Shown: positions 2-13,381 of the stretch, piece after piece
How the letters are laid out: every line of letters begins with the position of its first letter
Position numbering within the stretch: the stretch's first letter is position 1
Virus record (IMG/VR): IMGVR_UViG_3300035670_000036
Strand: one strand, 5' to 3'
Source of the DNA: an uncultured virus (IMG/VR IMGVR_UViG_3300035670_000036)
Lineage: Duplodnaviria > Heunggongvirae > Uroviricota > Caudoviricetes
Length of the DNA: 20,000 nucleotides
Program-made: the position numbers and the translations under genes
Notes under the pieces: generated by a model
What the model saw: the letters and a program-made list of their open reading frames with translations, nothing else
What the model was told of the DNA's origin: nothing
Database searches by the model: none

Positions 2-382
2 TTAAGAGGATTGCCGGGTTCAGGTAAAACAACTTTGGCAAATCAATTAGGCGGATCTCTAGTTGAAGCCGACAGATATTTTATGGAATATGGTGAGTAT
101 AAGTTTGATGCTTCTAAATTGAAAGAGGCTCATGCTTGGTGCAGGAATCAGGTTAAAGAGTGGATGGAAACCAATGATAGAGGATTTGATGTCCCCAGGA
201 TTGTTGTTTCCAATACCTTTACACAAGAATGGGAAATGAAACCTTACTTTGATTTGGCAAAAGAACATGGTTATACGGTCTTTTCATTAATTGTAGAAAA
301 TAGACATGGAGGTAAAAATGTTCATGATTGCCCGGAAGAAACTATAGCAAAGATGAGAGAAAGATTTGAAATTACATTATAA
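2..382 (+). CDS. P-loop kinase (AAA_33 / polynucleotide-kinase-like), 5'-truncated by window edge
   Basis: Frame open from base 2: LRGLPGSGKTT Walker A; EADRYF; IVVSNTF (DNTN-equivalent); HDCPEETIAKMRERF lid, as in PNK/N4BP2-like kinases. Confidence 0.85.
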   Translation, partial: LRGLPGSGKTTLANQLGGSLVEADRYFMEYGEYKFDASKLKEAHAWCRNQVKEWMETNDRGFDVPRIVVSNTFTQEWEMKPYFDLAKEHGYTVFSLIVENRHGGKNVHDCPEETIAKMRERFEITL

Positions 383-388
383 AAAAAT

Positions 389-757
389 ATGGAAATAACA
401 CACGAAATTAGAGAGTATATCATCAGTGATGGAGAAAACAAATATTCAGTTAGACACAATGTTGGTAAAGAATTTTATTTAATTCAACAAATTGTAGCAA
501 ACAAAATATATGGGGATAGAAATTCAATGGTTTATGTTGATGCGACTAAAGATTTTTTAGATAAAGTTAAAGAAGTCATAAATAAATCACATAAAGAGAA
601 AAGTAATATTCCCAATGTTTATGAATACATTTGGTCAAAGGTATTCCCAGATGAAGAATTTAATTATGGTGATTTCTATGATTGGTCAAGAGAAAACGCT
701 AATATTGCATTAGAATTAGCTTTACAGTATTGCGACCTAATGACTTGGAAAAAATGA
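389..757 (+). CDS. Hypothetical protein, probably an inserted gene
   Basis: 122 aa ORF with ATG, lying between two copies of a kinase-like 3' end. Confidence 0.75.
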   Translation: MEITHEIREYIISDGENKYSVRHNVGKEFYLIQQIVANKIYGDRNSMVYVDATKDFLDKVKEVINKSHKEKSNIPNVYEYIWSKVFPDEEFNYGDFYDWSRENANIALELALQYCDLMTWKK

Positions 758-783
758 GAGAAAGATTTAATGTAAAACTTTAA
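745..783 (+). repeat. Diverged duplicate of kinase 3' end (LEKMRERFNVKL*)
   Basis: ATGAGAGAAAGATTT is identical at 353-367 and 754-768; translation matches the kinase C-terminus IAKMRERFEITL* with the stop at the same register. Confidence 0.75.
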
Positions 784-794
784 AAACAATAATC

Positions 795-1139
795 ATGAGT
801 GGAGGGTTTTTTAATTATGACCAGGCTCGAATTAAAGGCATAATTGATTCTATCGAAGAGTTAATTGAAAGAAATGGGAGGGCTAAAACAGAAGAAGAGA
901 TTTTAGCGGGTGCTTGGGGTACTCTTGATGATGATTATTTTAATAAGTATCCAGAAGATAAGTTTTGGTACAAGTATCCGGATGAAGTTATAGAAGAGTT
1001 TAAAATAGCGGTAGAGTTCTTAAGGATTGCTTATGTATATGCTCAAAGAATTGATTGGTTAGTATCAGGTGATGATGGTGAGGAATCATTTATGGAAAGA
1101 CTAAAAAAAGATTTAACCTTAATAATATATTCGAAATGA
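795..1139 (+). CDS. Phage hypothetical protein (MSGG-F-Y N-terminus)
   Basis: 114 aa; MSGGFFNY start and RIDWLVSGDDGEESF segment recalled from conserved phage hypotheticals. Confidence 0.8.
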   Translation: MSGGFFNYDQARIKGIIDSIEELIERNGRAKTEEEILAGAWGTLDDDYFNKYPEDKFWYKYPDEVIEEFKIAVEFLRIAYVYAQRIDWLVSGDDGEESFMERLKKDLTLIIYSK

Positions 1140-1357
1140 AAAGCATGTTACTTCTTATTTTATTAGCGTGTGGGCTTACCTTTTTAGGGTTGTATTGTGA
1201 ATCTAAGAAAGATCCTTACGAGATTGGTATGCATTGGGATTATAGTATCACTTGCGAGAATGGATTTATCTTTAAAATATTAGATCAGCGAAGAGGTACG
1301 ATTCAAATTTTTAATAGCGATGGGACTCCTTTGAAATGTGGAGAAAGAATATATTAA
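1136..1357 (+). CDS. Small membrane-anchored or secreted hypothetical protein
   Basis: ATGA overlap with upstream stop; hydrophobic N-terminus MKSMLLLILLACGLTFLGLYC. Confidence 0.7.
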   Translation: MKSMLLLILLACGLTFLGLYCESKKDPYEIGMHWDYSITCENGFIFKILDQRRGTIQIFNSDGTPLKCGERIY

Positions 1358-1366
1358 AAACTTGTA

Positions 1367-1489
1367 TGTCGGATATATATTTTCGATAGCCTGTACCCTT
1401 GAGAAACTCGTATTAGCCAGCTGTAAATATAACGGCAGGTAAGATAAGCAGGCATGCTCTGATATAAAGGGGTAGTAGAATAAAGAGCA
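1367..1489 (+). ncRNA. Candidate structured RNA with multi-stem junction and pseudoknot, family unrecognised
   Basis: Intergenic and GC-enriched. Stems: 1367-1373/1382-1388; GCCTG 1389-1393/CAGGC 1449-1453; GAG 1401-1403/CTC 1407-1409; 1411-1424/1432-1446 with internal loops; TGCTCT 1455-1460/AGAGCA 1484-1489. Pseudoknot TACCCTT 1394-1400/AGGGGTA 1468-1474. Confidence 0.55.
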
Positions 1490-1514
1490 AATTTTAACTT
1501 AAAAATGTAAAAAG

Positions 1515-1688
1515 ATGTTTGAAAAGCTGTATGAAGGTTTTAAAGATGTGGATGATCCTAGTAGATTGTATGAGATTAAAATGGATATTAGGAGATCCAG
1601 ATATGAAATGTATGAAAAATGTTTTAGTAACCTAGCAAAGCCTATCGTTAAATTTTTTACTGATGATTGGTTTGTTTTAAAAAGATAA
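1515..1688 (+). CDS. Small hypothetical protein, 57 aa (not in supplied ORF track)
   Basis: ATG 1515 to TAA 1688: MFEKLYEGFKDVDDPSRLYEIKMDIRRSRYEMYEKCFSNLAKPIVKFFTDDWFVLKR; A-rich leader; stop is 1 nt before next ATG. Confidence 0.7.
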   Translation: MFEKLYEGFKDVDDPSRLYEIKMDIRRSRYEMYEKCFSNLAKPIVKFFTDDWFVLKR

Positions 1689-1689
1689 T

Positions 1690-2454
1690 ATGAAAAGTGT
1701 AATTATTGGAGACATTCATGGTAGAATATCATGGGAGAAAATTGTTGAAAAAGAAAATGATGCAGATAGATTTATATTTGTAGGAGATTACTTTGATACA
1801 CATGAAAATATAAGAATTATAGTTCAATTACATAATTTTAAACGTTTGATTGACTTTAAGAATGAGTCAAAAGCAGATGTTATTATGTTAATTGGTAATC
1901 ATGACTTTCATTACATGCCTTTTGCTAATGAGACGTATTCAGGACATCAGAGAGGACATCATCATACTATTCAGACGTTATTGATGGAAAATATAAATGA
2001 GTTATCTATGTGTTATAAGATGGATAATTATTTATTTAGTCATGCGGGAGTTAGTTCTGAATGGTTAGAGTACTGGGGAAGTAGGATGAAGGTAAATATG
2101 AAGGATGCTGTTGATGTTATTGTTAATGATTTATTTATTGGTTCTCCCCGCGCTTTTAAATTTGCCGGATGGGACCCTTATGGAGACAGTGCCGAATCTT
2201 CTCCTATATGGATCCGGCCTAAGTCATTACAGGAATCTAACTATGATACCTTCCGGAAAGAATACATCCAGGTTGTAGGCCATACACAACAAAAGAAAAT
2301 AGATATTAATGGGCACACTACGGGAGGAAGGTATTACTACATTGACACTCTAGGTACTAGCCAGGAATATCTAATTATCGAAGACGGTAAAGTTAGCGTA
2401 GGTCAATTATCGGATGATTTTACTTCATATCAATCTTCTTCAAAAGAAATTTAG
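1690..2454 (+). CDS. Calcineurin-like metallophosphoesterase
   Basis: Full motif set GDIHG, GDYFD, GNHD, SHAG, VGHT. Confidence 0.92.
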   Translation: MKSVIIGDIHGRISWEKIVEKENDADRFIFVGDYFDTHENIRIIVQLHNFKRLIDFKNESKADVIMLIGNHDFHYMPFANETYSGHQRGHHHTIQTLLMENINELSMCYKMDNYLFSHAGVSSEWLEYWGSRMKVNMKDAVDVIVNDLFIGSPRAFKFAGWDPYGDSAESSPIWIRPKSLQESNYDTFRKEYIQVVGHTQQKKIDINGHTTGGRYYYIDTLGTSQEYLIIEDGKVSVGQLSDDFTSYQSSSKEI

Positions 2455-2482
2455 GTTTTCTAGAAAAATTGTTTTATATTTG
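2451..2482 (+). promoter_or_regulatory. Bacteroidota-type sigma70 promoter
   Basis: -7 TATATTTG at 2475-2482; imperfect -33 TTAG at 2451-2454; 20 nt spacer; 22 nt before ATG 2505. Confidence 0.65.
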
Positions 2483-2504
2483 TATTAAGTTGTAAAAATA
2501 AAGT

Positions 2505-2870
2505 ATGAAAAAAGAAAATTTTAAAAACATCTTGAAATCGTATCGTGATGTATTCACTCACTTGTGTGATTTACATGATATGGGATTTAACTTATTAGAT
2601 AATAAACGTTTTCCCATAAATGATTTGATTTCTAATATATTCAACCAAAGTATCCTATCCCACTACAATGATGAAGGATTAGATTGGATAACATGGTATC
2701 TTCTAGAATTTATTAAAGTTGATACTCTTATTTCAGATAATGAGTTGATGTATCCGGATAGAGAACCTGCTGCATGGGATTCCAATGGAGCTCCTATATG
2801 TTTTAATATTGATGTATTATATGATTACATTAATAAGAATTGTAAACCTGAAAAACAAGAATGTTGCTAG
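2505..2870 (+). CDS. Phage hypothetical protein
   Basis: 121 aa; EGLDWITWYLLE and AWDSNGAPIC...LYDY segments; downstream of promoter. Confidence 0.8.
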   Translation: MKKENFKNILKSYRDVFTHLCDLHDMGFNLLDNKRFPINDLISNIFNQSILSHYNDEGLDWITWYLLEFIKVDTLISDNELMYPDREPAAWDSNGAPICFNIDVLYDYINKNCKPEKQECC

Positions 2871-3178
2871 TAAAATCAAAAGTTGTACATTGTAAGAAAG
2901 AAAGTTATAATGTATATATTGGAAGGCCGAGCAAGTGGGGGAATCCTTTCACGCATAAACAAGATGGAAAAACACTTGCTAAGTATGTAGTGGAAGATAG
3001 AGATGCTGCTGTCAATGCTTATAGGGAATGGATTACAAATGGAGATGGAAAACATTTATTGGATGATTTACATGAATTAAAAGGTGGAAAGATTCTTGGA
3101 TGTTGGTGTAAGCCACAAGCATGTCATGGAGATGTTTTATTAGAATTGTTAGATAAATTAACCCCGCAAAATAAATAA
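2861..3178 (+). CDS. DUF4326 domain protein
   Basis: VYIGRPSKWGNPF and LGCWCKPQACHGDVL signature motifs. Confidence 0.9.
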   Translation: MLLVKSKVVHCKKESYNVYIGRPSKWGNPFTHKQDGKTLAKYVVEDRDAAVNAYREWITNGDGKHLLDDLHELKGGKILGCWCKPQACHGDVLLELLDKLTPQNK

Positions 3179-3179
3179 C

Positions 3180-3422
3180 ATGAATTTAGAATCTATACTT
3201 GAAAAATATCCGGATGAAACATTTTTAAAAGCAGATGGATTTGATGATGCTATACTTGGAGTGGATGAATCTTCCATGCGTCTTATCTACTCTATATCTA
3301 AATGTATTGATATCCTGATGGAAGACATGTCAGATGAAGATGCCTTAGAACATTTTTATTATAATGTCAGTGGTTCATATATGGGAGAACAAACTCCTAT
3401 CTGGTGCGATGATCTTGATTAA
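3180..3422 (+). CDS. Conserved phage hypothetical protein (acidic)
   Basis: 80 aa; ADGFDDAILG...EHFYYNVSGSYMGEQTPIW pattern recalled from aquatic phage proteins. Confidence 0.8.
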   Translation: MNLESILEKYPDETFLKADGFDDAILGVDESSMRLIYSISKCIDILMEDMSDEDALEHFYYNVSGSYMGEQTPIWCDDLD

Positions 3423-3437
3423 CTTAAATTAAATGAT

Positions 3438-3683
3438 ATGACAAACGAAGATTTATTAAAAGAAAATGGATGGGAAATTGAATGTGAAAGCCCATTTGAG
3501 ATACGACACGAAGATGGAAGTTTTGCAAGTATGAACGCTGCTTATAGAGTAGTTGAAGAATTGCGTTTATCTGATGTTATGAGTAGTGTTTTATTGATTA
3601 AAGATGCCTACAAAGCTGAACTGATTAATAAAGATATGTTCATAACTAAAATGATAGACTTACTTGAAAAACATTACTCATAA
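3438..3683 (+). CDS. Hypothetical protein
   Basis: 81 aa ORF in operon; GWEIECESPFEIRH segment. Confidence 0.75.
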   Translation: MTNEDLLKENGWEIECESPFEIRHEDGSFASMNAAYRVVEELRLSDVMSSVLLIKDAYKAELINKDMFITKMIDLLEKHYS

Positions 3684-3753
3684 CTAATGGCTTGGCGATA
3701 CTGTATTAAAAGTAAAAAGGTTATTATAAATTCTTAAACCTAAATTTATTACT

Positions 3754-4311
3754 ATGTACATTTTAATTATTTTATTCATTGTTATAATTGGGTATATCCC
3801 CGCAATAATTCTCTATTACTATATTAAATCCTATGTGTCTTACAAAATAGGATTGCGTAAGCTAGAGAAGAAGTTTGGTTCAATGTCAAGCAAAAGTGCG
3901 AGATACAAATTTCCTCCCGTAGCTTTCAGAGATATTCTACTATGTTTCTCCAACCACAGAGAAGATAGATATAAATATATAGGCATTTCTTGGAATATAT
4001 TTAAAGAAGGTACTGATTTGCATGAATACCTAGAGGACTTTATTATGTTTGTTGCAAAGAAAGCTAAACCTTGGTGGTGTCCTACATTTGTGCTGAATCT
4101 CCTTAATTTATTTGCTAATGATAACTCGATTGTTAGATGTAGGAATCAACATTTAGCATTCGCTTTTAGAAATATTACTGGTGGATTGTTAATAACTGAC
4201 ATAAAAGTAAAGTATGGAACAATAAGAGTTTATGGTTATTTTACTAAAGAGGTTGACGAGGAATTAACAAAACTTGAAAAATTAATTGATCCACATTTAG
4301 AGGCTTATTAA
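3754..4311 (+). CDS. Hypothetical protein with N-terminal TM helix
   Basis: Hydrophobic residues 1-24; C-terminal DIKVKYGTIRVY resembles the QIKEKFGxLRxY motif of phage hypotheticals. Confidence 0.75.
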   Translation: MYILIILFIVIIGYIPAIILYYYIKSYVSYKIGLRKLEKKFGSMSSKSARYKFPPVAFRDILLCFSNHREDRYKYIGISWNIFKEGTDLHEYLEDFIMFVAKKAKPWWCPTFVLNLLNLFANDNSIVRCRNQHLAFAFRNITGGLLITDIKVKYGTIRVYGYFTKEVDEELTKLEKLIDPHLEAY

Positions 4312-4312
4312 T

Positions 4313-4612
4313 ATGATTACGCAAAAAAGAAAAGAATATCTTAGAAATAGGTTTGCTAATTTATCGGAGGAAAAGAAAGAGGAGCATAGGAGAAAAAGAT
4401 TGGCTGATTACCACTCCATGTCTGAGTATGCTAGGCAAAAAGAAGTGAAAAGACGACAACAATATTACATAAAAAACAAAGAGAAGTTAAGAGAAAGACA
4501 AAGAGAATACTATGCGAAAAACAGGGAAATTTATGTAGAATACGCTAGAAATAAAAGGGAGAGAGAAAAAGAATTAAAAAAGTCCTTAATTAGTTTGGAA
4601 GTTACAAAATAA
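4313..4612 (+). CDS. Highly charged helical hypothetical protein
   Basis: R/K/E-rich, with repeated YYxKN(K/R)E units. Confidence 0.7.
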   Translation: MITQKRKEYLRNRFANLSEEKKEEHRRKRLADYHSMSEYARQKEVKRRQQYYIKNKEKLRERQREYYAKNREIYVEYARNKREREKELKKSLISLEVTK

Positions 4613-4625
4613 TAAGTTATCTTTG
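4594..4625 (+). promoter_or_regulatory. Bacteroidota-type sigma70 promoter for RNA ligase
   Basis: Perfect consensus: TTTG 4594-4597, 20 nt spacer, TATCTTTG 4618-4625. Confidence 0.8.
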
Positions 4626-4644
4626 TGTCATTAAATCATAGTTT

Positions 4645-5775
4645 ATGAAAAATGAAAACAGTGTTTGTTTCGTGTCCGTGATAAATGATATTCAATCTAT
4701 TCCGGATGCTGACAATATAGAACTAGCTGTTATAAATGGCTGGCAATGTGTTGTAAAAAAAGGTTCTCACTCAATTGGAGATTTAGTTATCTGCGCTACT
4801 ACAGATGCTATGATACCTTTAGAAATTTCAGAGAAATTAGGTATCACTAATTATCTCCGTAACAAAGAAAGAGTTAGGACAATTAAGCTAAGAAGTGTTT
4901 ACAGTGAATGCTTGATAATGCCGATTGATTTGATTCCGGAAAATAAGAGGAAAAAATGGGAGGATGTAATGGATATTCTTAAAATATCTAAGTATGAACC
5001 TGCGGTTAAAATGATTAGATTAGCCAATGGTAAAAAAAGAAAATACCATGAAAATCCTAATTTCCCTATTTACTACAAATTCCCTAATTTTAAAAATGTT
5101 CCTAATATTTTTGATGAAAATGATTATGTCGAAATTACTAGGAAAATACATGGAACAAATGCAAGATACGGGATTGTTAAGAAAAATAAGCTATCTCTGT
5201 GGATTAAAATTAAAAAATTCTTTGGTTTTGAGACAGGTTGGGATGAATATGAATTCGTGGTAGGTTCTCATAACGTAGAAAAAGGATCTGATAGTCAAGG
5301 TTTCTATGATACTAATGTTTGGTATGATATTGAGAAAAAATATGATATTAAAAATAAGCTCTGGAATCTTGTTAAGAAAAATTTTGGTGGTTATTCTCGC
5401 ATGAGCTCTGGTTTTATAATCTACGGCGAAATATATGGGAAAGGAATCCAGAAAAACTATGAGTATGGATTAGATGATATACAGCTATGTATTTTCGATA
5501 TTGAATTAGATAAAAAGTATTTCAATTTGTCCGCAGCTCAATATATGACTGAAGAATATTTAAATCTACCCTACGTTGAAGTCTTATATAAAGGACTTTA
5601 TTCAGAGGAAGTAAGAAATTCATTCGTGTTCAATAATTTTATAAACAACACTAAAGTTCCTCACGAAGGTATTGTTATAAAAGCTGTTGATGGAAATAGA
5701 TCGAAAGTAGCTAAAGTAATAAACCCGGATTACTTAATATACAGCGAAAAAAATAATGTCGGGGATTCACATTAA
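4645..5775 (+). CDS. ATP-dependent RNA ligase, DRB0094-like (Rnl2-related) with N-terminal OB fold
   Basis: N-terminal IPDADNIELAVINGWQCVVKKG; nucleotidyltransferase motifs I KIHGTN, III GEIYG, IIIa FDI, IV EGIVIK, V KVINPDY. Confidence 0.92.
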   Translation: MKNENSVCFVSVINDIQSIPDADNIELAVINGWQCVVKKGSHSIGDLVICATTDAMIPLEISEKLGITNYLRNKERVRTIKLRSVYSECLIMPIDLIPENKRKKWEDVMDILKISKYEPAVKMIRLANGKKRKYHENPNFPIYYKFPNFKNVPNIFDENDYVEITRKIHGTNARYGIVKKNKLSLWIKIKKFFGFETGWDEYEFVVGSHNVEKGSDSQGFYDTNVWYDIEKKYDIKNKLWNLVKKNFGGYSRMSSGFIIYGEIYGKGIQKNYEYGLDDIQLCIFDIELDKKYFNLSAAQYMTEEYLNLPYVEVLYKGLYSEEVRNSFVFNNFINNTKVPHEGIVIKAVDGNRSKVAKVINPDYLIYSEKNNVGDSH

Positions 5776-5799
5776 TCAATCACAATTATATCACAAAGT

Positions 5800-6021
5800 A
5801 TGAGAAAAGTTTTTGTTAATTTATTGGTTTTATTGTTCTTCTTAATAACAACTTGTATTGGGTCTTTTATGGTTATGGTGTGTTGGAATTTTTCAATTGC
5901 TGATTATTTTGAATTGAAAGATTTATCCTTCCTTCAATCTTTTGGATTCTATGTCATGTTAAGAATTATCCTAGACAATCCTATAAAGATAGAGGCAACG
6001 GATCAGTCTGATAAGGACTAA
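5800..6021 (+). CDS. Small membrane protein
   Basis: 73 aa with two hydrophobic segments. Confidence 0.75.
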   Translation: MRKVFVNLLVLLFFLITTCIGSFMVMVCWNFSIADYFELKDLSFLQSFGFYVMLRIILDNPIKIEATDQSDKD

Positions 6022-6034
6022 TAAAATAAACAAG

Positions 6035-6069
6035 TATGAGGCCTTTTTACAAAGGCCTCATATTTATTT
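6035..6069 (+). terminator. Intrinsic terminator hairpin
   Basis: Perfect 12-bp inverted repeat TATGAGGCCTTT-TTAC-AAAGGCCTCATA (6035-6062) followed by TTTATTT. Confidence 0.8.
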
Positions 6070-6074
6070 AAAAG
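6061..6074 (+). promoter_or_regulatory. Putative phage-specific (late) promoter motif TATTTATTTAAAAG
   Basis: Matches motif upstream of three - strand genes; core ends 11 nt before ATG 6080. Confidence 0.5.
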
Positions 6075-6079
6075 ATATT

Positions 6080-6733
6080 ATGGATTCTAAGAAAATAGAC
6101 TCGGTTAAATTTGGAAATCAACCAGAAGAGTATGTAAGAAAGATTGAGAAAGATGAATACGGAACTCTTAAAAAAGCAAAAGATTCCGGTATGATAGATG
6201 AATTTATAAAAAAGTTTCCTCCTCCAAAGAATTCTTCCGATACCGCAAAGAAAGAACTTGAACATCTTAAAAAAATTTCTGATAATGTTACGGATAAAGA
6301 AAAAAGTATGTGTTTTTATATGGAGCATCATCATTTAGATTTCTTCGTGAAAACGGCGGAAAAATTGGGTATTAAAGGTGTAGACCGGAAAAAAGTTAAC
6401 TCCTGGGCTGGTGAGGCTTTTCCTATAGTGTACTACCTTAAAGATTACTTCAATAGACCTAGGCCAAACGAACTAGCCGGAGAGTACGGAATTAAGCTAC
6501 ATCCTATAACTAGAACCGATGCAAATTCAGCTGCTTACCCTTCCGGACATACCATGGATTTTCTAGTTATGATTTACCAATTAATGAAATTGAAACCCTC
6601 CTCGAGAAAATATTTTGTAGATCTCTACAATAAAATAAAGGATGTTAGAGAGTTATCAGGAGTTCATTATCCGTCGGATGGGGATGGAAGTGAAGAATTG
6701 TTCAAATTAATGTTGAAATACAAAATAATATAG
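6080..6733 (+). CDS. PAP2 superfamily phosphatase (acid phosphatase / vanadium haloperoxidase fold)
   Basis: Motifs KDYFNRPRP, YPSGH, RELSGVHYPSD; no TM segments. Confidence 0.88.
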   Translation: MDSKKIDSVKFGNQPEEYVRKIEKDEYGTLKKAKDSGMIDEFIKKFPPPKNSSDTAKKELEHLKKISDNVTDKEKSMCFYMEHHHLDFFVKTAEKLGIKGVDRKKVNSWAGEAFPIVYYLKDYFNRPRPNELAGEYGIKLHPITRTDANSAAYPSGHTMDFLVMIYQLMKLKPSSRKYFVDLYNKIKDVRELSGVHYPSDGDGSEELFKLMLKYKII

Positions 6734-6742
6734 TTATATTTG
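6712..6742 (+). promoter_or_regulatory. Bacteroidota-type sigma70 promoter for thyX operon
   Basis: GTTG 6712-6715, 19 nt spacer, TATATTTG 6735-6742. Confidence 0.7.
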
Positions 6743-6800
6743 CACAACAAACTTAATTGGTTTATTACACAAAATTTAGTTTACTAGAAAGTTTCAAACA

Positions 6801-7664
6801 ATGAAAGCAGAATTAATTGATTTTATGGGAAGTGACCTCAAGATTGCAAATGTCGCTAGAGTTTCTTATGACAAGGAAGCCTCGAATTATCCCGACAGTC
6901 AAAATGAGAATCTATTAGAATTTCTATGGGAAGAAGGGCATGTATCTCCCTTCAGACATGCGCAATTACAATTTCGGTTGTCATGTCCAATATATGTAGA
7001 AAGGCAGCTTAGAAAGCATGAAATTGGCGTTGAAGTGAATTTACCAATGGAGAATATGTCTGTAAACTCAATATCGGGGAGATATGTAGATTTCTCAGAT
7101 TCTTACTATACTATTCAAACATTTAGGTCCCAGTCGAAAGATTCAAAACAAGGTAGTGGTGAAGATCTAAATAAATTAAGTAATGTAATAGCAAATATTA
7201 CTCAAGATGAAATAATAGAGAATGCTAAAACAGCTTATGAAAAGTTACTTGAACTAGGAACAAGTAAAGAGCAGGCTAGATCGGTACTTCCATTATCCTT
7301 GGAGACAACTTTTATTTGGACTATGAGTTTTTTAGCTTTCATACACTTAGTTAAATTAAGAATCAAGAAAGATGTACAAAAAGAAACTAGAGACTTAGTT
7401 GCAGATATGTTGGAACAAGTAAAAAACATGCCGGGTAATCCTTTTAAGAAGTCTTTAGAACTCTTGGAAAGAAAAGAAGAGGCTTTTATTGTGACAAACA
7501 ATAGCGGAGATATTATATCTGTATTTACTAGCCTAAGAAAATTAAAAAAACATTTCTTGAATAAAGGTTGGATTTTTGATAAAACTTCCTTATCTTTGCA
7601 GAATAATTTGAAAACATTATTTATTACTAAAATGGGATTAGACGGAAGTTATGAAGAGATCTAA
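6801..7664 (+). CDS. thyX: FAD-dependent thymidylate synthase ThyX with C-terminal extension
   Basis: MGSDLKIANVARVSY, GHVSPFRH, RQLRKH...NSISGRY, EQARSVLP, LRIKKDVQKET. Confidence 0.92.
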   Translation: MKAELIDFMGSDLKIANVARVSYDKEASNYPDSQNENLLEFLWEEGHVSPFRHAQLQFRLSCPIYVERQLRKHEIGVEVNLPMENMSVNSISGRYVDFSDSYYTIQTFRSQSKDSKQGSGEDLNKLSNVIANITQDEIIENAKTAYEKLLELGTSKEQARSVLPLSLETTFIWTMSFLAFIHLVKLRIKKDVQKETRDLVADMLEQVKNMPGNPFKKSLELLERKEEAFIVTNNSGDIISVFTSLRKLKKHFLNKGWIFDKTSLSLQNNLKTLFITKMGLDGSYEEI

Positions 7665-8154
7665 AGGTATTTTTTACATCGAGGGAGTTATAGGAAGCGA
7701 AGTATATGCTTCTTTATTTAGAAAAAATTTGTACGGAAAAGAGAATTATGATAAAACCATAATTTTTGATGAAATCATGCATAAAATAGATGGAGAGATA
7801 AGAATAGAGTCTTTAGTCTATCCAGGAAAAGATGCTAAGATAATTCAGCAAAATGAGTTTGACAAGAAAGGGATCTCAAAAATTGGACTTGTTTCAGATA
7901 AAATAGAAAATGTTTACTTCCTATATCCTCCTACGGGTTGGTATGATAGCGAAATACATTTAGATGAGCAGGGGGAAGTTGAACAAGTCATTTTTGATTT
8001 TAAGTATTTAGATTCAGAAGATCCGGACGATATAGATGATTTACTATTCTTTGATTCAAAGTACCTTCGTCTATTTATGGATAGTTCTCTAAAAGTAAAA
8101 GACTGTTATAAATTCACAAACTTAAATTTACTATGTTACAATCACCAGATTTAA
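7651..8154 (+). CDS. Hypothetical protein
   Basis: 167 aa ORF overlapping thyX stop. Confidence 0.75.
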   Translation: MKRSKGIFYIEGVIGSEVYASLFRKNLYGKENYDKTIIFDEIMHKIDGEIRIESLVYPGKDAKIIQQNEFDKKGISKIGLVSDKIENVYFLYPPTGWYDSEIHLDEQGEVEQVIFDFKYLDSEDPDDIDDLLFFDSKYLRLFMDSSLKVKDCYKFTNLNLLCYNHQI

Positions 8155-8426
8155 AAAGGGATTTACCTAAATTTATTATTGCTTCTACTTCTTACTTAGC
8201 ACAAGAAACATTTATATTTGAAGCAGAGGACATGGGAGGATTCCCTAAAATAGTAAAATCAGGCGGGCTAGAAGAATTAACCGGATTGGCGAAAAGGTGG
8301 GGGGATAAAAATTGGGAGTCGAAGGAAGATGCGGTAAATTTATATGCCTCGGGTTCTTATGTTCGTGTTAAAACAGAAGTGCCAAATTTTGATAGCGCTT
8401 ATTTGTATATGTTAAAAAATGATTAA
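8133..8426 (+). CDS. Hypothetical protein
   Basis: 97 aa ORF overlapping both neighbours. Confidence 0.7.
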   Translation: MLQSPDLKRDLPKFIIASTSYLAQETFIFEAEDMGGFPKIVKSGGLEELTGLAKRWGDKNWESKEDAVNLYASGSYVRVKTEVPNFDSAYLYMLKND

Positions 8427-8427
8427 A

Positions 8428-8862
8428 ATGAAAAGATTATTTGTTTTTGTGTTATTGTTATCTACTGTAAAGAGTTTTTCTCAGTATTTCAGTCTTAATA
8501 ATCCTGTTAGAAAATCAATTGACAGTATTGTATGTATTACGATTGAATACAAAAAAAGAGCTCCAGCTCCTTGTAGTATTGAAATGGATACTTATGAGGT
8601 ACCTATTTATATGATTAGAGTCGGCCTTTATGATAGGGCTATAAAGTCAGGTCCCGAAATCATTAAAATAAAGTTGGGGATACAGAATTATTACTATTAT
8701 GCACGTATGTATAATTCTTACAAGAAGGCTGCTATTGATTTAGAAAAATTAAAGAAGGCCGGATTTTGTGATGCGTTTATTGCAGCCGCTCCTTTTGATA
8801 TGCGAGGATTCTCGTTTTTTCCGGAAGGGGCGGGTTTTTCTAGTGAGATTATTTTTAAATAA
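8428..8862 (+). CDS. Secreted protein with SPOR-like peptidoglycan-binding domain
   Basis: Signal peptide MKRLFVFVLLLSTVKSFSQ (start 8428 or 8419); YMIRVG...YNSYKKAAIDLEKLKKAGFCDAFIAA resembles Bacteroidota SPOR-like domains. Confidence 0.65.
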   Translation: MKRLFVFVLLLSTVKSFSQYFSLNNPVRKSIDSIVCITIEYKKRAPAPCSIEMDTYEVPIYMIRVGLYDRAIKSGPEIIKIKLGIQNYYYYARMYNSYKKAAIDLEKLKKAGFCDAFIAAAPFDMRGFSFFPEGAGFSSEIIFK

Positions 8863-8866
8863 TACT

Positions 8867-8892
8867 AAGGCCTGCTTTTTAGCGGGCCTTTT
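8867..8892 (+). terminator. Intrinsic terminator hairpin
   Basis: AAGGCCTGCT-TTTT-AGCGGGCCTT stem (one G-U) ending in a short T run, just after stop at 8862. Confidence 0.7.
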
Positions 8893-8905
8893 CAATTTAA
8901 CTTTT

Positions 8906-9157
8906 ATGCAAACACCCCTAGAACAGATTTTATATTGGGCGGAGACAAAGAAAGATCAGTATAGTGCTTTGTCAGAGGTGTCTAATGATCCTTCCTTTCA
9001 CTTAGGTAGAATAGACGTAATGTTAGAATTAGTAGCTTTAATCTATAAAAAACTACCGGAAGAAAAAGAAATGATTGAAAATGCTTATGAAGACGGTAAA
9101 ACAGGAAATGGTAGAGGCAGCCACTACTATGAATCCCTATTTAATCAAGATTCTTAA
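8906..9157 (+). CDS. Phage hypothetical protein, 83 aa (start corrected to MQTPLEQ)
   Basis: ATG 8906 lies after the terminator; QTPLEQ...EKEMIENAYEDG...HYYESLF pattern recalled from Flavobacterium-like phage proteins. Confidence 0.75.
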   Translation: MQTPLEQILYWAETKKDQYSALSEVSNDPSFHLGRIDVMLELVALIYKKLPEEKEMIENAYEDGKTGNGRGSHYYESLFNQDS

Positions 9158-9542: not shown

Positions 9543-10118
9543 TTAACTTCTCAAATAAAAATCTAACAACCTAACCAATACTTCTTCGTAATCTACACAT
9601 GCTTCTTTATCCATTATACTGTTCATTGAATCTACTGTAGTATCATAATCATCGGCATCAAAGTTTATTTTTAGCGTTTTTAACTTATGTACGACCATGG
9701 CATCCGGATCTTTTTCTTTAAACATGGAGTCTATGAACTTTCTATTAAAACCTAGCAAGTCGATATCCATTTCACTTTTTAGGATAATATCGAACTCTTC
9801 CTTTAGCATATCGTAATCCCATTCTCCAGAAAGCGCTATCTTATTGTCTGCTATGATGAAAGCTCTTTTTTTATCATCAGTAAGGTGAGTAAGCCGTATT
9901 GTAGGAACTTCTTCAAGATTTAAATGTTTAGCTGCCATAAATCTTCCATGTCCAGCTATAATCTCATTTTCCTCATCTATAATAATCGGATTAACAAAGC
10001 CAAACTCTTCTATACTATTGGCAATTTTCTCTACTTGAGCTTCACTATGTATTCTCGAGTTATAATTTGATTCTTTTATTTCCTCAATGTCAACAATTTC
10101 TATATTTAATTTACTCAT
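9543..10118 (-). CDS. ParB/Srx N-terminal domain protein (copy 2)
   Basis: NSRIHSEAQVEKIANSIEEFGFVNPIIIDEENEIIAGHGRFMAA...ADNK; likely start MSKLNIE at 10118 (ATGAGTAA overlap with upstream stop). Confidence 0.88.
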   Translation of the reverse strand: MSKLNIEIVDIEEIKESNYNSRIHSEAQVEKIANSIEEFGFVNPIIIDEENEIIAGHGRFMAAKHLNLEEVPTIRLTHLTDDKKRAFIIADNKIALSGEWDYDMLKEEFDIILKSEMDIDLLGFNRKFIDSMFKEKDPDAMVVHKLKTLKINFDADDYDTTVDSMNSIMDKEACVDYEEVLVRLLDFYLRS

Positions 10119-10725
10119 GATGTCTTTCATTATAGTGTTCAATCAATAATCTTATAACTTCTGCGTTAGCTTTTATATCGTTCTCATTCATTACCGTCTT
10201 GAATTTCTTCATCATGTTTGTATAATCTTCTATGTTATATGAGAAGACAATGCTTTTTTTATTTTTAGATGCAGGAGAAGATTCAGATTTAGTTGCAGAT
10301 AAGATGTCATCATCATTTTGAAAAGATTCATTTAACATTTCAAAATCCTCATAATCAAATCCCATGGCCATTGCATCTATGTCGACAGAATTAAGATATT
10401 CTAATTCATCGCTTAATTTTGTATAATCCCATTCCCCTAATTCTGTTAGCTTGTTATCCGCTATGGAGTAGGCTCTTATTTGATCATCTGTTAAATTTTC
10501 GATGCGGATAGATGGAATAGAATCTATATGTAATGCTTTAGCTGCCAGGAATCGAGCATGTCCAGCAATAATCATGTTTTTCTTATCAATCAGGATAGGA
10601 ATGTTAAATCCGAACTCTGTGATGCTCTTCATTAATTTTGCTATCTGTTCATCCGGATGTATCTTACTGTTTCTTGGATTCTCTGATAACCTATTTACAT
10701 CTATATATTCAATCTTATTCTTCAT
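10111..10725 (-). CDS. ParB/Srx N-terminal domain protein (copy 1)
   Basis: NPRNSKIHPDEQIAKLMKSITEFGFNIPILIDKKNMIIAGHARFLAA...ADNKLTELGEWD. Confidence 0.9.
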   Translation of the reverse strand: MKNKIEYIDVNRLSENPRNSKIHPDEQIAKLMKSITEFGFNIPILIDKKNMIIAGHARFLAAKALHIDSIPSIRIENLTDDQIRAYSIADNKLTELGEWDYTKLSDELEYLNSVDIDAMAMGFDYEDFEMLNESFQNDDDILSATKSESSPASKNKKSIVFSYNIEDYTNMMKKFKTVMNENDIKANAEVIRLLIEHYNERHHE

Positions 10726-12737: not shown

Positions 12738-12769
12738 GTTGCGTAAGTGAATTGTTTTTACTATATTTG
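12738..12769 (+). promoter_or_regulatory. Bacteroidota-type sigma70 promoter for YopX gene
   Basis: GTTG 12738-12741, 20 nt spacer, TATATTTG 12762-12769. Confidence 0.72.
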
Positions 12770-12802
12770 CGCTTATTATTTATTTTTAAACATGAACATA
12801 CT

Positions 12803-13381
12803 ATGGAGACTATTTTTAGACTGAGGTTTAGAGCAGAAAAAAGTTTTGTGGAATTAAAGAAAGGTGAAATTATTGAAGTATTTGAAAACATATTCGATAC
12901 AGACAATAAGGACTTGGGCTATGTTTATGCTGGTACACCTAGAGGATTTTCTCTTGAGTCCTGTGATGCATGGACGGGCTTTAGAGACTCTCTGGGAAAT
13001 CGGATCTATGAAAATGATAACATACTCAGTAGATACCTTGGAGACGATTACAAGTTATATATGAGGCTAGAAAGGGTAAGGTGGAATCCGGTCACTTTAC
13101 AATTTTTCTGCGGGGACTACCCATTATATAGATATCAAGAAATCAAAAGATTAAATATCATTAGTAACATAACAAAAGATAAACTAAATGAGATACAAAA
13201 AATAATAGGGCATAATTTCTCCAATGAAGATTTAACTAATTTAATATGCCCTTTTGAAGTCATGGGAAATATTTATGACCAGTCAAAAGATATAGACGGT
13301 AAAGAAGATAACTTCTACCTACCGCCAAGTAAAAAGATTAGAAATCCAAAAAAATCAGAGACGTATGATCCGGTTGTTTAA
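12803..13381 (+). CDS. YopX family phage protein
   Basis: LRFRA...WTGFRDSLGNRIYENDNI...FEVMGNIYD; start set to ATG 12803, downstream of the promoter. Confidence 0.8.
   Translation: METIFRLRFRAEKSFVELKKGEIIEVFENIFDTDNKDLGYVYAGTPRGFSLESCDAWTGFRDSLGNRIYENDNILSRYLGDDYKLYMRLERVRWNPVTLQFFCGDYPLYRYQEIKRLNIISNITKDKLNEIQKIIGHNFSNEDLTNLICPFEVMGNIYDQSKDIDGKEDNFYLPPSKKIRNPKKSETYDPVV

Follow-up and report, generated by a model that had tools for sequence, protein, structure and literature searches.

Bacterial Y RNAs (YrlA and YrlB) are structured, tRNA-related non-coding RNAs that are encoded together with the Ro and RtcB RNA-repair genes. Phage T4 carries two stable non-tRNA RNAs, rnaC (species 1, 139 nt) and rnaD (species 2, 119 nt), which abut same-strand tRNA genes and are annotated in NC_000866 only as 'small, stable RNA', with no function. 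Furthermore, hepatitis delta virus (HDV)-like theta ribozymes were found to lie within 5 nt of phage tRNAs (PMC10879173, covered in part), and 8,495 candidate structured RNAs (csRNAs, 'DNAVirus_n') have been catalogued from IMG/VR (PMC10690425, covered in part). Here, we describe a structured RNA element in a 20,000-nt stretch of DNA (the window) from IMG/VR record IMGVR_UViG_3300035670_000036, a piece of an uncultured tailed phage genome with a GC content of ~30%. An earlier note, made from the letters of this stretch, had proposed that a gap between two of its genes encodes a pseudoknotted RNA. Our results strongly support a structured RNA family, of which the window carries an intact, long-armed member beside RNA-repair genes.

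Like the Y RNAs, the element is a structured RNA beside RNA-repair enzymes, but it lacks a long terminal stem like theirs; none of the Y RNA models of Rfam matched at the thresholds used, and no Ro gene was present among the scanned genes of the window. The tRNA-embedded copies of the family share the placement of T4 rnaC and rnaD, while the window copy, which has no tRNA, does not. A search of NC_000866 69500-72500 with the covariance model of the family (R1, see below), with filters off, gave no match on the rnaC/rnaD strand within 70908-71171, the best nearby match being 8.3 bits on the opposite strand; the T4 RNAs are analogous in placement, with no homology. The csRNA catalogue draws on the same data source and deals with the same kind of object, and in its covered portion it names no tRNA-array pseudoknot RNA and gives no function. 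The core strings of the element were not found in the six of its supplementary files that were searched. Given its more than 100 IMG/VR copies, the family may be an unnamed model of that catalogue.

In the fold of the element (Table 1), P1 encloses a junction from which two variable arms, P2 and P3, extend, and the loop of P4 gives seven bases to a pseudoknot (PK), so that the helix order from 5' to 3' is P1, PK5', P2, P3, P1', P4-5', PK3', P4-3'. All of the nested helices (P1, P2, P3 and P4) were recovered by the minimum free energy (MFE) fold, with the closing stem, the interrupted hairpin and the 3' hairpin lying where the earlier note had put them. The P4 loop is 23 nt long, and within it AGGGGUA sits between a conserved A-rich GAUAUAA linker and a UANNA-GAAUAA segment. 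Four G-U pairs of the + strand become A-C on the opposite strand, and folding of the minus strand was no better than that of shuffles (z +0.63). The G-U pairs therefore identify the + strand as the RNA strand, as had been claimed. A 5' hairpin of the MFE fold (1367-1388) was excluded from the element; it is not kept in three relatives (L005, L006 and L010). A minus-strand small ORF in the gap (33 aa; 45-78 aa in relatives) was also rejected, because P3 insertions and deletions shift its frame between close relatives.

An 18-nt core string from the window was found in 51 IMG/VR stretches, 35 of them distinct and mostly from unrelated phages, and a 20-nt 3' loop motif, used as a second anchor, brought in at least 120 further stretches. 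Both cores were found by regular expression in 115 of the 120 loci of the 20-mer scan and in 47 of the 51 loci of the 18-nt scan. Elsewhere the element has a minimal form of ~80 nt, with a 4-nt loop in place of the long P3 arm of the window copy, which measures ~100 nt. The covariance model R1, built from 14 minimal copies with 80 model positions, matched the window copy over positions 1-80 of 80 at 81.8 bits (E 1.7e-18, cmsearch), with all core motifs present, and of 100 sources searched it hit 96 (E < 0.01), the four misses being chance 20-mer occurrences. One further match (L066 967-1045, 20.4 bits, E 0.019) lacks the core motifs and was judged to be chance. In 185,579 prokaryote species genomes, the 20-mer occurred 63 times; six occurrences are the element (58-79 bits), all on contigs of metagenome-assembled genomes (MAGs), and the others are chance occurrences that scored at most 24.5 bits. 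Four of these carriers are labelled Lachnospiraceae, Eubacteriales, Clostridia (sheep colon) and Porphyromonadaceae, and two 'uncultured bacterium'; several of the MAG-contig copies are followed by a tRNA. For some copies, the source run or MAG is labelled as aquatic, wastewater or gut. There is one copy of the element per genome in all five long phage records (129-207 kb), one of which has terminal repeats and is rated 100% complete. Degenerate copies were also seen in L080 and, with the loop deleted, in L084/L098.

The structure was assessed in an alignment of 96 rows, 90 of them distinct. Standard pairing was present in 95.4% of cells, compared with 83.8% for shuffled partners and 37-50% for partners slid along the alignment, and both sides of a pair had changed in 215 cells versus 45 expected; neither value was reached in any of 500 shuffles. 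Covariation among homologues, for which the earlier note had called, was observed in four of the five helices. The two outer P1 pairs covary (AU 50, GC 12, UA 10, GU 6, CG 4), the P3 base covaries (UA 68 / GC 15; UG 49 / CG 12), and all five P4 pairs change on both sides. The 7-bp pseudoknot, which had been predicted from complementarity, is also supported by family covariation: its one variable 5' position (columns 13/203) is U-A in 63 rows, U-G in 13, C-G in 11 and other in 1. The prediction of a mini-hairpin was right for the window and does not extend to the family, since in 48 of the 74 family cells the third P2 bases do not pair, and only the invariant GA/UC base is general. Optional hairpin insertions occur at this site (L167, L169, L170, L176, L184, L210, L211, L218 and L284), and in several members a whole hairpin stands between GA and AAACUC.

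In a cross-anchor analysis, each half of the element was scored only in the set fetched by the anchor in the other half. The 5' core (CCUG-UACCC...) was at least 95% conserved in the other-anchor set, conservation of the 3' loop (GA.AUAAA.GGGUA..AGAAUAA) was 90% or more across the 31 rows obtained with the 5' anchor, and in the 63 rows obtained with the 3' anchor the variable pseudoknot position was U-A in 44, U-G in 7 and C-G in 11, with no C-A. Apart from the covarying stems, almost every nucleotide is conserved; the RNA of ~80 nt has ~45 near-invariant positions. The covarying stems imply long divergence, and a near-invariant unpaired core would then suggest either a self-contained activity or a partner that is conserved across hosts. 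On these comparisons, it appears almost certain that the structured RNA family is real.

Close relatives were examined in 66 IMG/VR loci retrieved via the phosphoesterase of the window. The gap spacer was present at 92-97% identity in eight of them (L001-L007 and L010), and in the resulting 9-sequence alignment the DNA from 1371 to the ATG of the next ORF is invariant outside the apex of the long hairpin, in contrast to the coding DNA before it, which varies. The P3 extension has changed with partial compensation in L005/L006, and a G-to-A change in L004 converts the U-G pair of the pseudoknot to U-A. Two loci with a phosphoesterase that is 83% identical (L008/L009) have a homologue of the 57-aa ORF (ORF57) and the phosphoesterase without the RNA, their spacer being an unrelated 70 nt. 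The element is also missing from four of four records that share the phosphoesterase, one of which is 100% complete, and the nearest record (G001, a 23.7-kb fragment) gave no match to window 1136-1700. The element is an accessory gene that is patchily distributed.

This patchiness in related phages, together with the degenerate copies and the homing endonuclease genes near several loci (L073, L091, L094, L112 and L329), would suit a sequence that has no function as RNA, i.e., a DNA-level signal such as a promoter block or a site of recombination or homing, or else a mobile sequence in decay, in which the folding is incidental and its energy no better than that of shuffles. Such a reading is extremely improbable. 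It does not account for the compensatory changes in P1, P3, P4 and the pseudoknot that hold the pairing, for the G-U asymmetry that fixes one strand, for arm insertions and deletions that keep the hairpins, or for the exact same-strand nesting between tRNAs described below.

Table 1. Features of the RNA element and of the genes around it, in window coordinates.
Feature	Position	Strand	Basis or remark
Promoter-like TTAAAA -16- TATATT	1354..1381	+	9/12 matches; predicted
Whole structured RNA element	1387..1490	+	match to family covariance model R1
P1	1389-1393 GCCUG with 1449-1453 CAGGC	+	sequence and MFE fold
Pseudoknot	UACCCUU 1394-1400 with AGGGGUA 1468-1474	+	7 pairs, one U-G
P2 mini-hairpin GAG-AAA-CUC	1401-1409; GAG 1401-1403 with CUC 1407-1409	+	sequence and MFE fold
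P3, interrupted hairpin, variable peripheral arm	1411-1446	+	sequence and MFE fold
P3 base	UAUU 1411-1414 with GAUA 1443-1446	+	
Clade-specific P3 extension	1416-1440	+	
Conserved AG before P1 3' strand	1447-1448	+	family conservation
P4, 3' hairpin	1455..1489; UGCUCU 1455-1460 with AGAGCA 1484-1489	+	sequence and MFE fold
A/U-rich tail to ORF57 ATG	1491..1514	+	no terminator hairpin; U4 run 3 nt past P4; unpaired in MFE fold
AAA_33 / polynucleotide-kinase-like ATPase	2..382	+	PF13671 E 7.4e-12; phrog_2071, phrog_505; truncated by window start
73-aa ORF 5' of element	1136..1357	+	no family match
57-aa ORF (ORF57) 3' of element	1515..1688	+	no family match
Calcineurin-like metallophosphoesterase	1690..2454	+	PF00149 E 2.7e-09; phrog_246, phrog_1649
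RNA ligase, N-terminal OB domain	4645..5775	+	PF21189, PF09414; phrog_968 E 3.5e-59

The element lies in a + strand gene block (2-9157) that, besides the genes in Table 1, encodes a DUF4326 protein, a PAP2 protein and ThyX (domain and PHROG searches) as well as small ORFs without assigned function. The reported gap of 157 nt (1358-1514) was confirmed from the ORF ends, reading frames stopping at 1357 and resuming at 1515, and its GC content is indeed above that of other spacers (0.35-0.37 across 1351-1500, compared with 0.19-0.20 near 2451-2550 and 3701-3800). The statement that it is the largest gap holds among + strand genes; it would fail if 12907-13377 is non-coding. The latter stretch (471 nt) lies between minus-strand ORFs, its sole cover is an unsupported TTG-started + strand ORF (12752-13381, 209 aa) without a PHROG match, and it may thus be the larger non-coding gap. 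The minus-strand block includes ParB-like, methyltransferase and minor-coat genes; at 9543-10725, two ParB-like nuclease/partition genes of 199 and 204 aa adjoin and overlap, and both match phrog_620.

Genes for tRNAs recur beside the element in the family loci. In 32 of 114 loci, ARAGORN found a tRNA at most 30 nt away from the element and on its strand, upstream in 16, downstream in 24 and on both sides in 8, with gaps between element and tRNA that are typically 0-6 nt, and every adjacent tRNA counted is on the strand of the element. For example, the element stands between tRNA-Glu and tRNA-Asp in L077 and between tRNA-Cys and tRNA-Phe in L081. Odd tRNA-like neighbours are often missed by ARAGORN, and of 111 distinct contexts, 60 have a T-loop motif next to the element. 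Around half of the copies thus directly adjoin a tRNA or tRNA-like gene of the same orientation. The window copy is detached from any tRNA, ARAGORN having found no tRNA or transfer-messenger RNA (tmRNA) gene in the window. Apart from their tRNA surroundings, the contexts are mutually unrelated and the protein neighbours vary; the downstream partners are tRNAs, tRNA-like genes, terminators, baseplate genes, DNA ligase and unknown ORFs.

The association with RNA repair that had been suggested from the window was seen again in other phages. In L103, an RNA ligase of the same PHROG as that of the window stops 7 nt before the element, phosphoesterases flank it in L074 and L085, and a Thg1-like tRNA-His guanylyltransferase ends 11 nt upstream in L341. 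A DUF4326 gene is a neighbour in L067, and a weak tRNA-nucleotidyltransferase-like match lies downstream in L075. Two other neighbours were noted: a reverse-transcriptase-like gene (L070 1840-2958, minus strand; phrog_2825, phrog_1423) whose end is 313 nt before the element, in the same orientation, and a DUF3800-XI RNA motif (L104 1293-1339), which scores 40.1 bits against a gathering threshold of 37.8 and precedes the element by ~155 nt within a tRNA array. The non-coding RNA arrays of UG27 reverse transcriptases consist of tandem ~150-nt units with little sequence conservation (bioRxiv 10.64898/2026.09.22.753630, covered in part); the element is unlike such units, and this identity was rejected.

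Many loci also carry a family of tRNA-Leu-like genes, often 3' of the element and sometimes also 5' (L085 1578-1679; L083, L212, L215, L244, L260, L275 and L277), which begin at most 22 nt downstream of the element in 24 of 111 contexts. Their acceptor, D and T arms are conserved, while the middle is hypervariable (15-90 nt) and mostly without a proper anticodon loop; their D arm best fits tRNA-Leu (median 16/19, compared with at most 13 for other isotypes). Most copies are missed by default ARAGORN and called with odd introns under -i, and they score 31-38 bits with the Rfam tRNA model. In L212, a truncated tRNA-like gene 3 nt past the element consists of an acceptor hairpin and a T-run, and this remnant looks like an intrinsic terminator derived from a tRNA acceptor stem. 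T4 rnaC (L350 1409-1547, minus strand) has at its 3' end a tRNA-type T arm and acceptor strand (GGGTTCGAATCCCGG...), as in the tRNA-like genes that flank the element. A hairpin module (ACGGTCCATAA...TTGGAC) was found as a P3 insertion of the element in L244 and L073 and inside the variable middle of the upstream tRNA-like gene in L215, which hints at a docking or protein-binding module shared by the element and the tRNA-like gene.

The window and 41 family loci were compared with the 4227 models of Rfam 15 in gathering-threshold and E-value modes. At the gathering threshold there were no matches in the window, in line with the statement of the earlier note that the RNA matches no hammerhead, twister, pistol, HDV-like, tRNA or common riboswitch core, and in 20 family loci 56 tRNAs and one DUF3800-XI motif were found, none overlapping the element. 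In E-value mode (up to E <= 10), the best matches overlapping the element had E >= 0.4 and at most 17 bits; an IMES-1 end match (8.6 bits, absent in 20 other members) and matches to Plastid-rpoB (opposite strand) and DUF2815 (14.3 bits, both non-recurring) were rejected as chance level. No Rfam tRNA match fell on the element in any locus scanned, and the element is not a tRNA or tmRNA. Furthermore, neither the region nor the minimal element matched a GenBank phage at E <= 1e-3 (megablast and blastn, 50,697 records), blast at E <= 10 giving only 20-25-nt patches in 11 records, and no description of the element was found in the literature, the exact core strings occurring in no paper. With no match in Rfam 15, none by blastn in GenBank phages and no literature description, the family is apparently undescribed.

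The theta ribozymes (PMC10879173, covered in part) are a parallel in form and placement, since the element is likewise a small pseudoknotted RNA of uncultured phages that lies a few nucleotides (0-6) from tRNA ends. One alternative is a new class of self-cleaving ribozyme, which would cut phage tRNA transcripts or yield the 2',3'-cyclic-phosphate and 5'-OH ends on which the neighbouring kinase, phosphoesterase and ligase act. In favour of this, the RNA is compact and pseudoknotted, with an invariant core and variable peripheral arms, and enzymes for healing and sealing recur as neighbours. However, there was no match to any Rfam ribozyme family in the window or the family loci, even at E <= 10, and the topology is not HDV-like. 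The HDV-like order is P1-P2-P3-P1-P1.1-P4-P2, a nested double pseudoknot, whereas in the element the 3' strand of the pseudoknot (the counterpart of P2 3') is enclosed by P4 and an extra arm stands between P3 and P1'. HDV-like and theta ribozymes also have a catalytic cytosine at the start of J4/2 (PMC10879173), and the equivalent linker of the element before the 3' strand of the pseudoknot, GAWAUAAA (G-A-(A/U)-A-U-A-A-A in 28-31 of 31 rows), has no conserved C. Identity with the HDV-like/theta class was rejected on the helix order, the C-less linker and the lack of an HDV-type Rfam match.

Two further points speak against self-cleavage of any kind. Flanking tRNAs would supply cuts by RNase P and RNase Z on both sides, and stand-alone copies have promoter-like and U-run ends, so that self-cleavage is not needed to explain maturation. 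Small self-cleaving ribozyme classes usually need fewer conserved positions than the ~45 found here. We therefore regard a new ribozyme class as unlikely.

The leading idea of the earlier note, given besides a self-cleaving RNA and a decoy linked to the RNA-repair genes, was a riboswitch-like element, i.e., a ligand-sensing leader for ORF57 and the phosphoesterase. In the window the element stands directly 5' of these co-oriented genes with no intervening terminator, its conserved junction and loop nucleotides are aptamer-like, and two contigs assembled from RNA libraries (X17, 1284-1522, and X18, 1356-1555) bridge the element and the start of ORF57. The other loci do not bear this proposal out: the downstream partners are inconsistent, the element has no constant leader position, and tRNA arrays, in which it is wedged at 0-6 nt, offer no mRNA to control. 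A U-run lies within 14 nt after the element in 17 of 111 contexts, and terminator hairpins lie 3' of it in L068 and L103. Furthermore, L008/L009 have ORF57 and the phosphoesterase without the RNA, no expression platform with alternative pairing was found, and 1100-1800 contains no terminator-like site. A riboswitch is thus very unlikely. The varied contexts, tRNA arrays on the one hand and stand-alone copies ending in a U-run or terminator on the other, instead argue for a small RNA that acts in trans and not for a leader of ORF57, and we consider it quite likely that the element is an independent processed RNA rather than a cis-regulator.

The RNA libraries of three studies yielded contigs over the element; besides X17 and X18, X15 extends over the whole stretch. 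X17 also includes a 52-nt contig with a depth of 43.8 that covers P4 only (1456-1491) and runs into letters like the post-element sequence of L241, next to a 241-nt contig with a depth of 2.2. X16 gave a single adapter-flanked fragment of 130 nt at 1481-1610. These contigs are a weak hint of expression, and the 52-nt contig may be one of abundance.

Several points weigh against the reading of the element as a processed small RNA of a tRNA/RNA-repair island. The MFE of -30.9 kcal/mol is close to that of shuffled sequences (-27.3 +/- 3.6, z -1.0), 35 of 200 shuffles being as good; the earlier note had expected folding better than shuffled controls and had named the lack of it as a refutation, and on thermodynamics the expectation failed. 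The energy being unconvincing, the case for a structured RNA rests on sequence comparison, and there retrieval of the sequences relied on exact anchors that lie within the element, which inflates the apparent conservation and is mitigated only by the cross-anchor analysis. The promoter-like site is no rarer than chance (4 such sites in 1100-1800 versus 3.8 expected). The library data are contigs only (Logan), which do not fix ends, strand, levels or transcription and could include DNA carry-over. With no terminator 3' of the element in the window, the RNA could be the 5' part of an ORF57/phosphoesterase mRNA. The RNA-repair neighbourhood may just reflect the habit of phage tRNA and repair genes to cluster, and the patchy presence (none of four phosphoesterase-sharing relatives) fits an accessory role and specifies none.

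Having weighed these points, we lean towards the reading that the element is a free-standing processed small RNA of a phage tRNA/RNA-repair island. Its maturation route and its promoter in the window are what we infer from placement. Tight nesting between tRNAs means that RNase P and 3'-trimming enzymes would excise a discrete RNA: in tRNA arrays, trimming of the flanking tRNAs would release it, by RNase P at its 3' side and by RNase Z or an equivalent at its 5' side. The window copy would use its own promoter-like site, which lies in a block that does not vary among the nine clade sequences and from which a start ~7 nt further on would coincide with the 5' boundary of P1, and its RNA would end at or soon after P4. 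The RNA would then act in trans in the tRNA/RNA-repair programme of the phage, its invariant pseudoknotted core binding a partner that is conserved among hosts. Our guesses at this partner are a tRNA-handling or RNA-repair factor, a tRNA-targeting nuclease for which the RNA would be a decoy, or a small ligand. A role as binder or decoy in tRNA/RNA repair is put forward tentatively; of the proposed functions it is the most likely, followed by a self-cleaving ribozyme and, as a distant third, a riboswitch. It seems doubtful that the family constitutes a new functional class, be it a self-cleaving ribozyme that feeds the kinase, phosphoesterase and ligase, or a decoy or sponge, made from phage tRNA operons, that neutralises tRNA-targeting host defences or binds a signalling nucleotide.

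Orphan RNAs of this kind have repeatedly proved to be ribozymes, riboswitch aptamers or cores of ribonucleoproteins. The present family combines ~80 nt, ~45 near-invariant positions and a covariation-supported pseudoknot, and contigs of uncultured phages contain more than 100 copies of it. The small size of the minimal form makes it directly amenable to cleavage assays in vitro, probing and structure determination. It is a clean phage example of tRNA punctuation that would release a non-tRNA RNA. Should the RNA belong to a new functional class, the element and the hypervariable tRNA-Leu-like genes that often flank it could form a phage RNA toolkit that is released by tRNA-processing enzymes. 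Altogether, the habitual position of the element within tRNA operons and next to genes for RNA ligase, kinase, phosphoesterase and Thg1-like enzymes suggests that the contest between phage and host over tRNAs has an RNA component that is so far unexplored.

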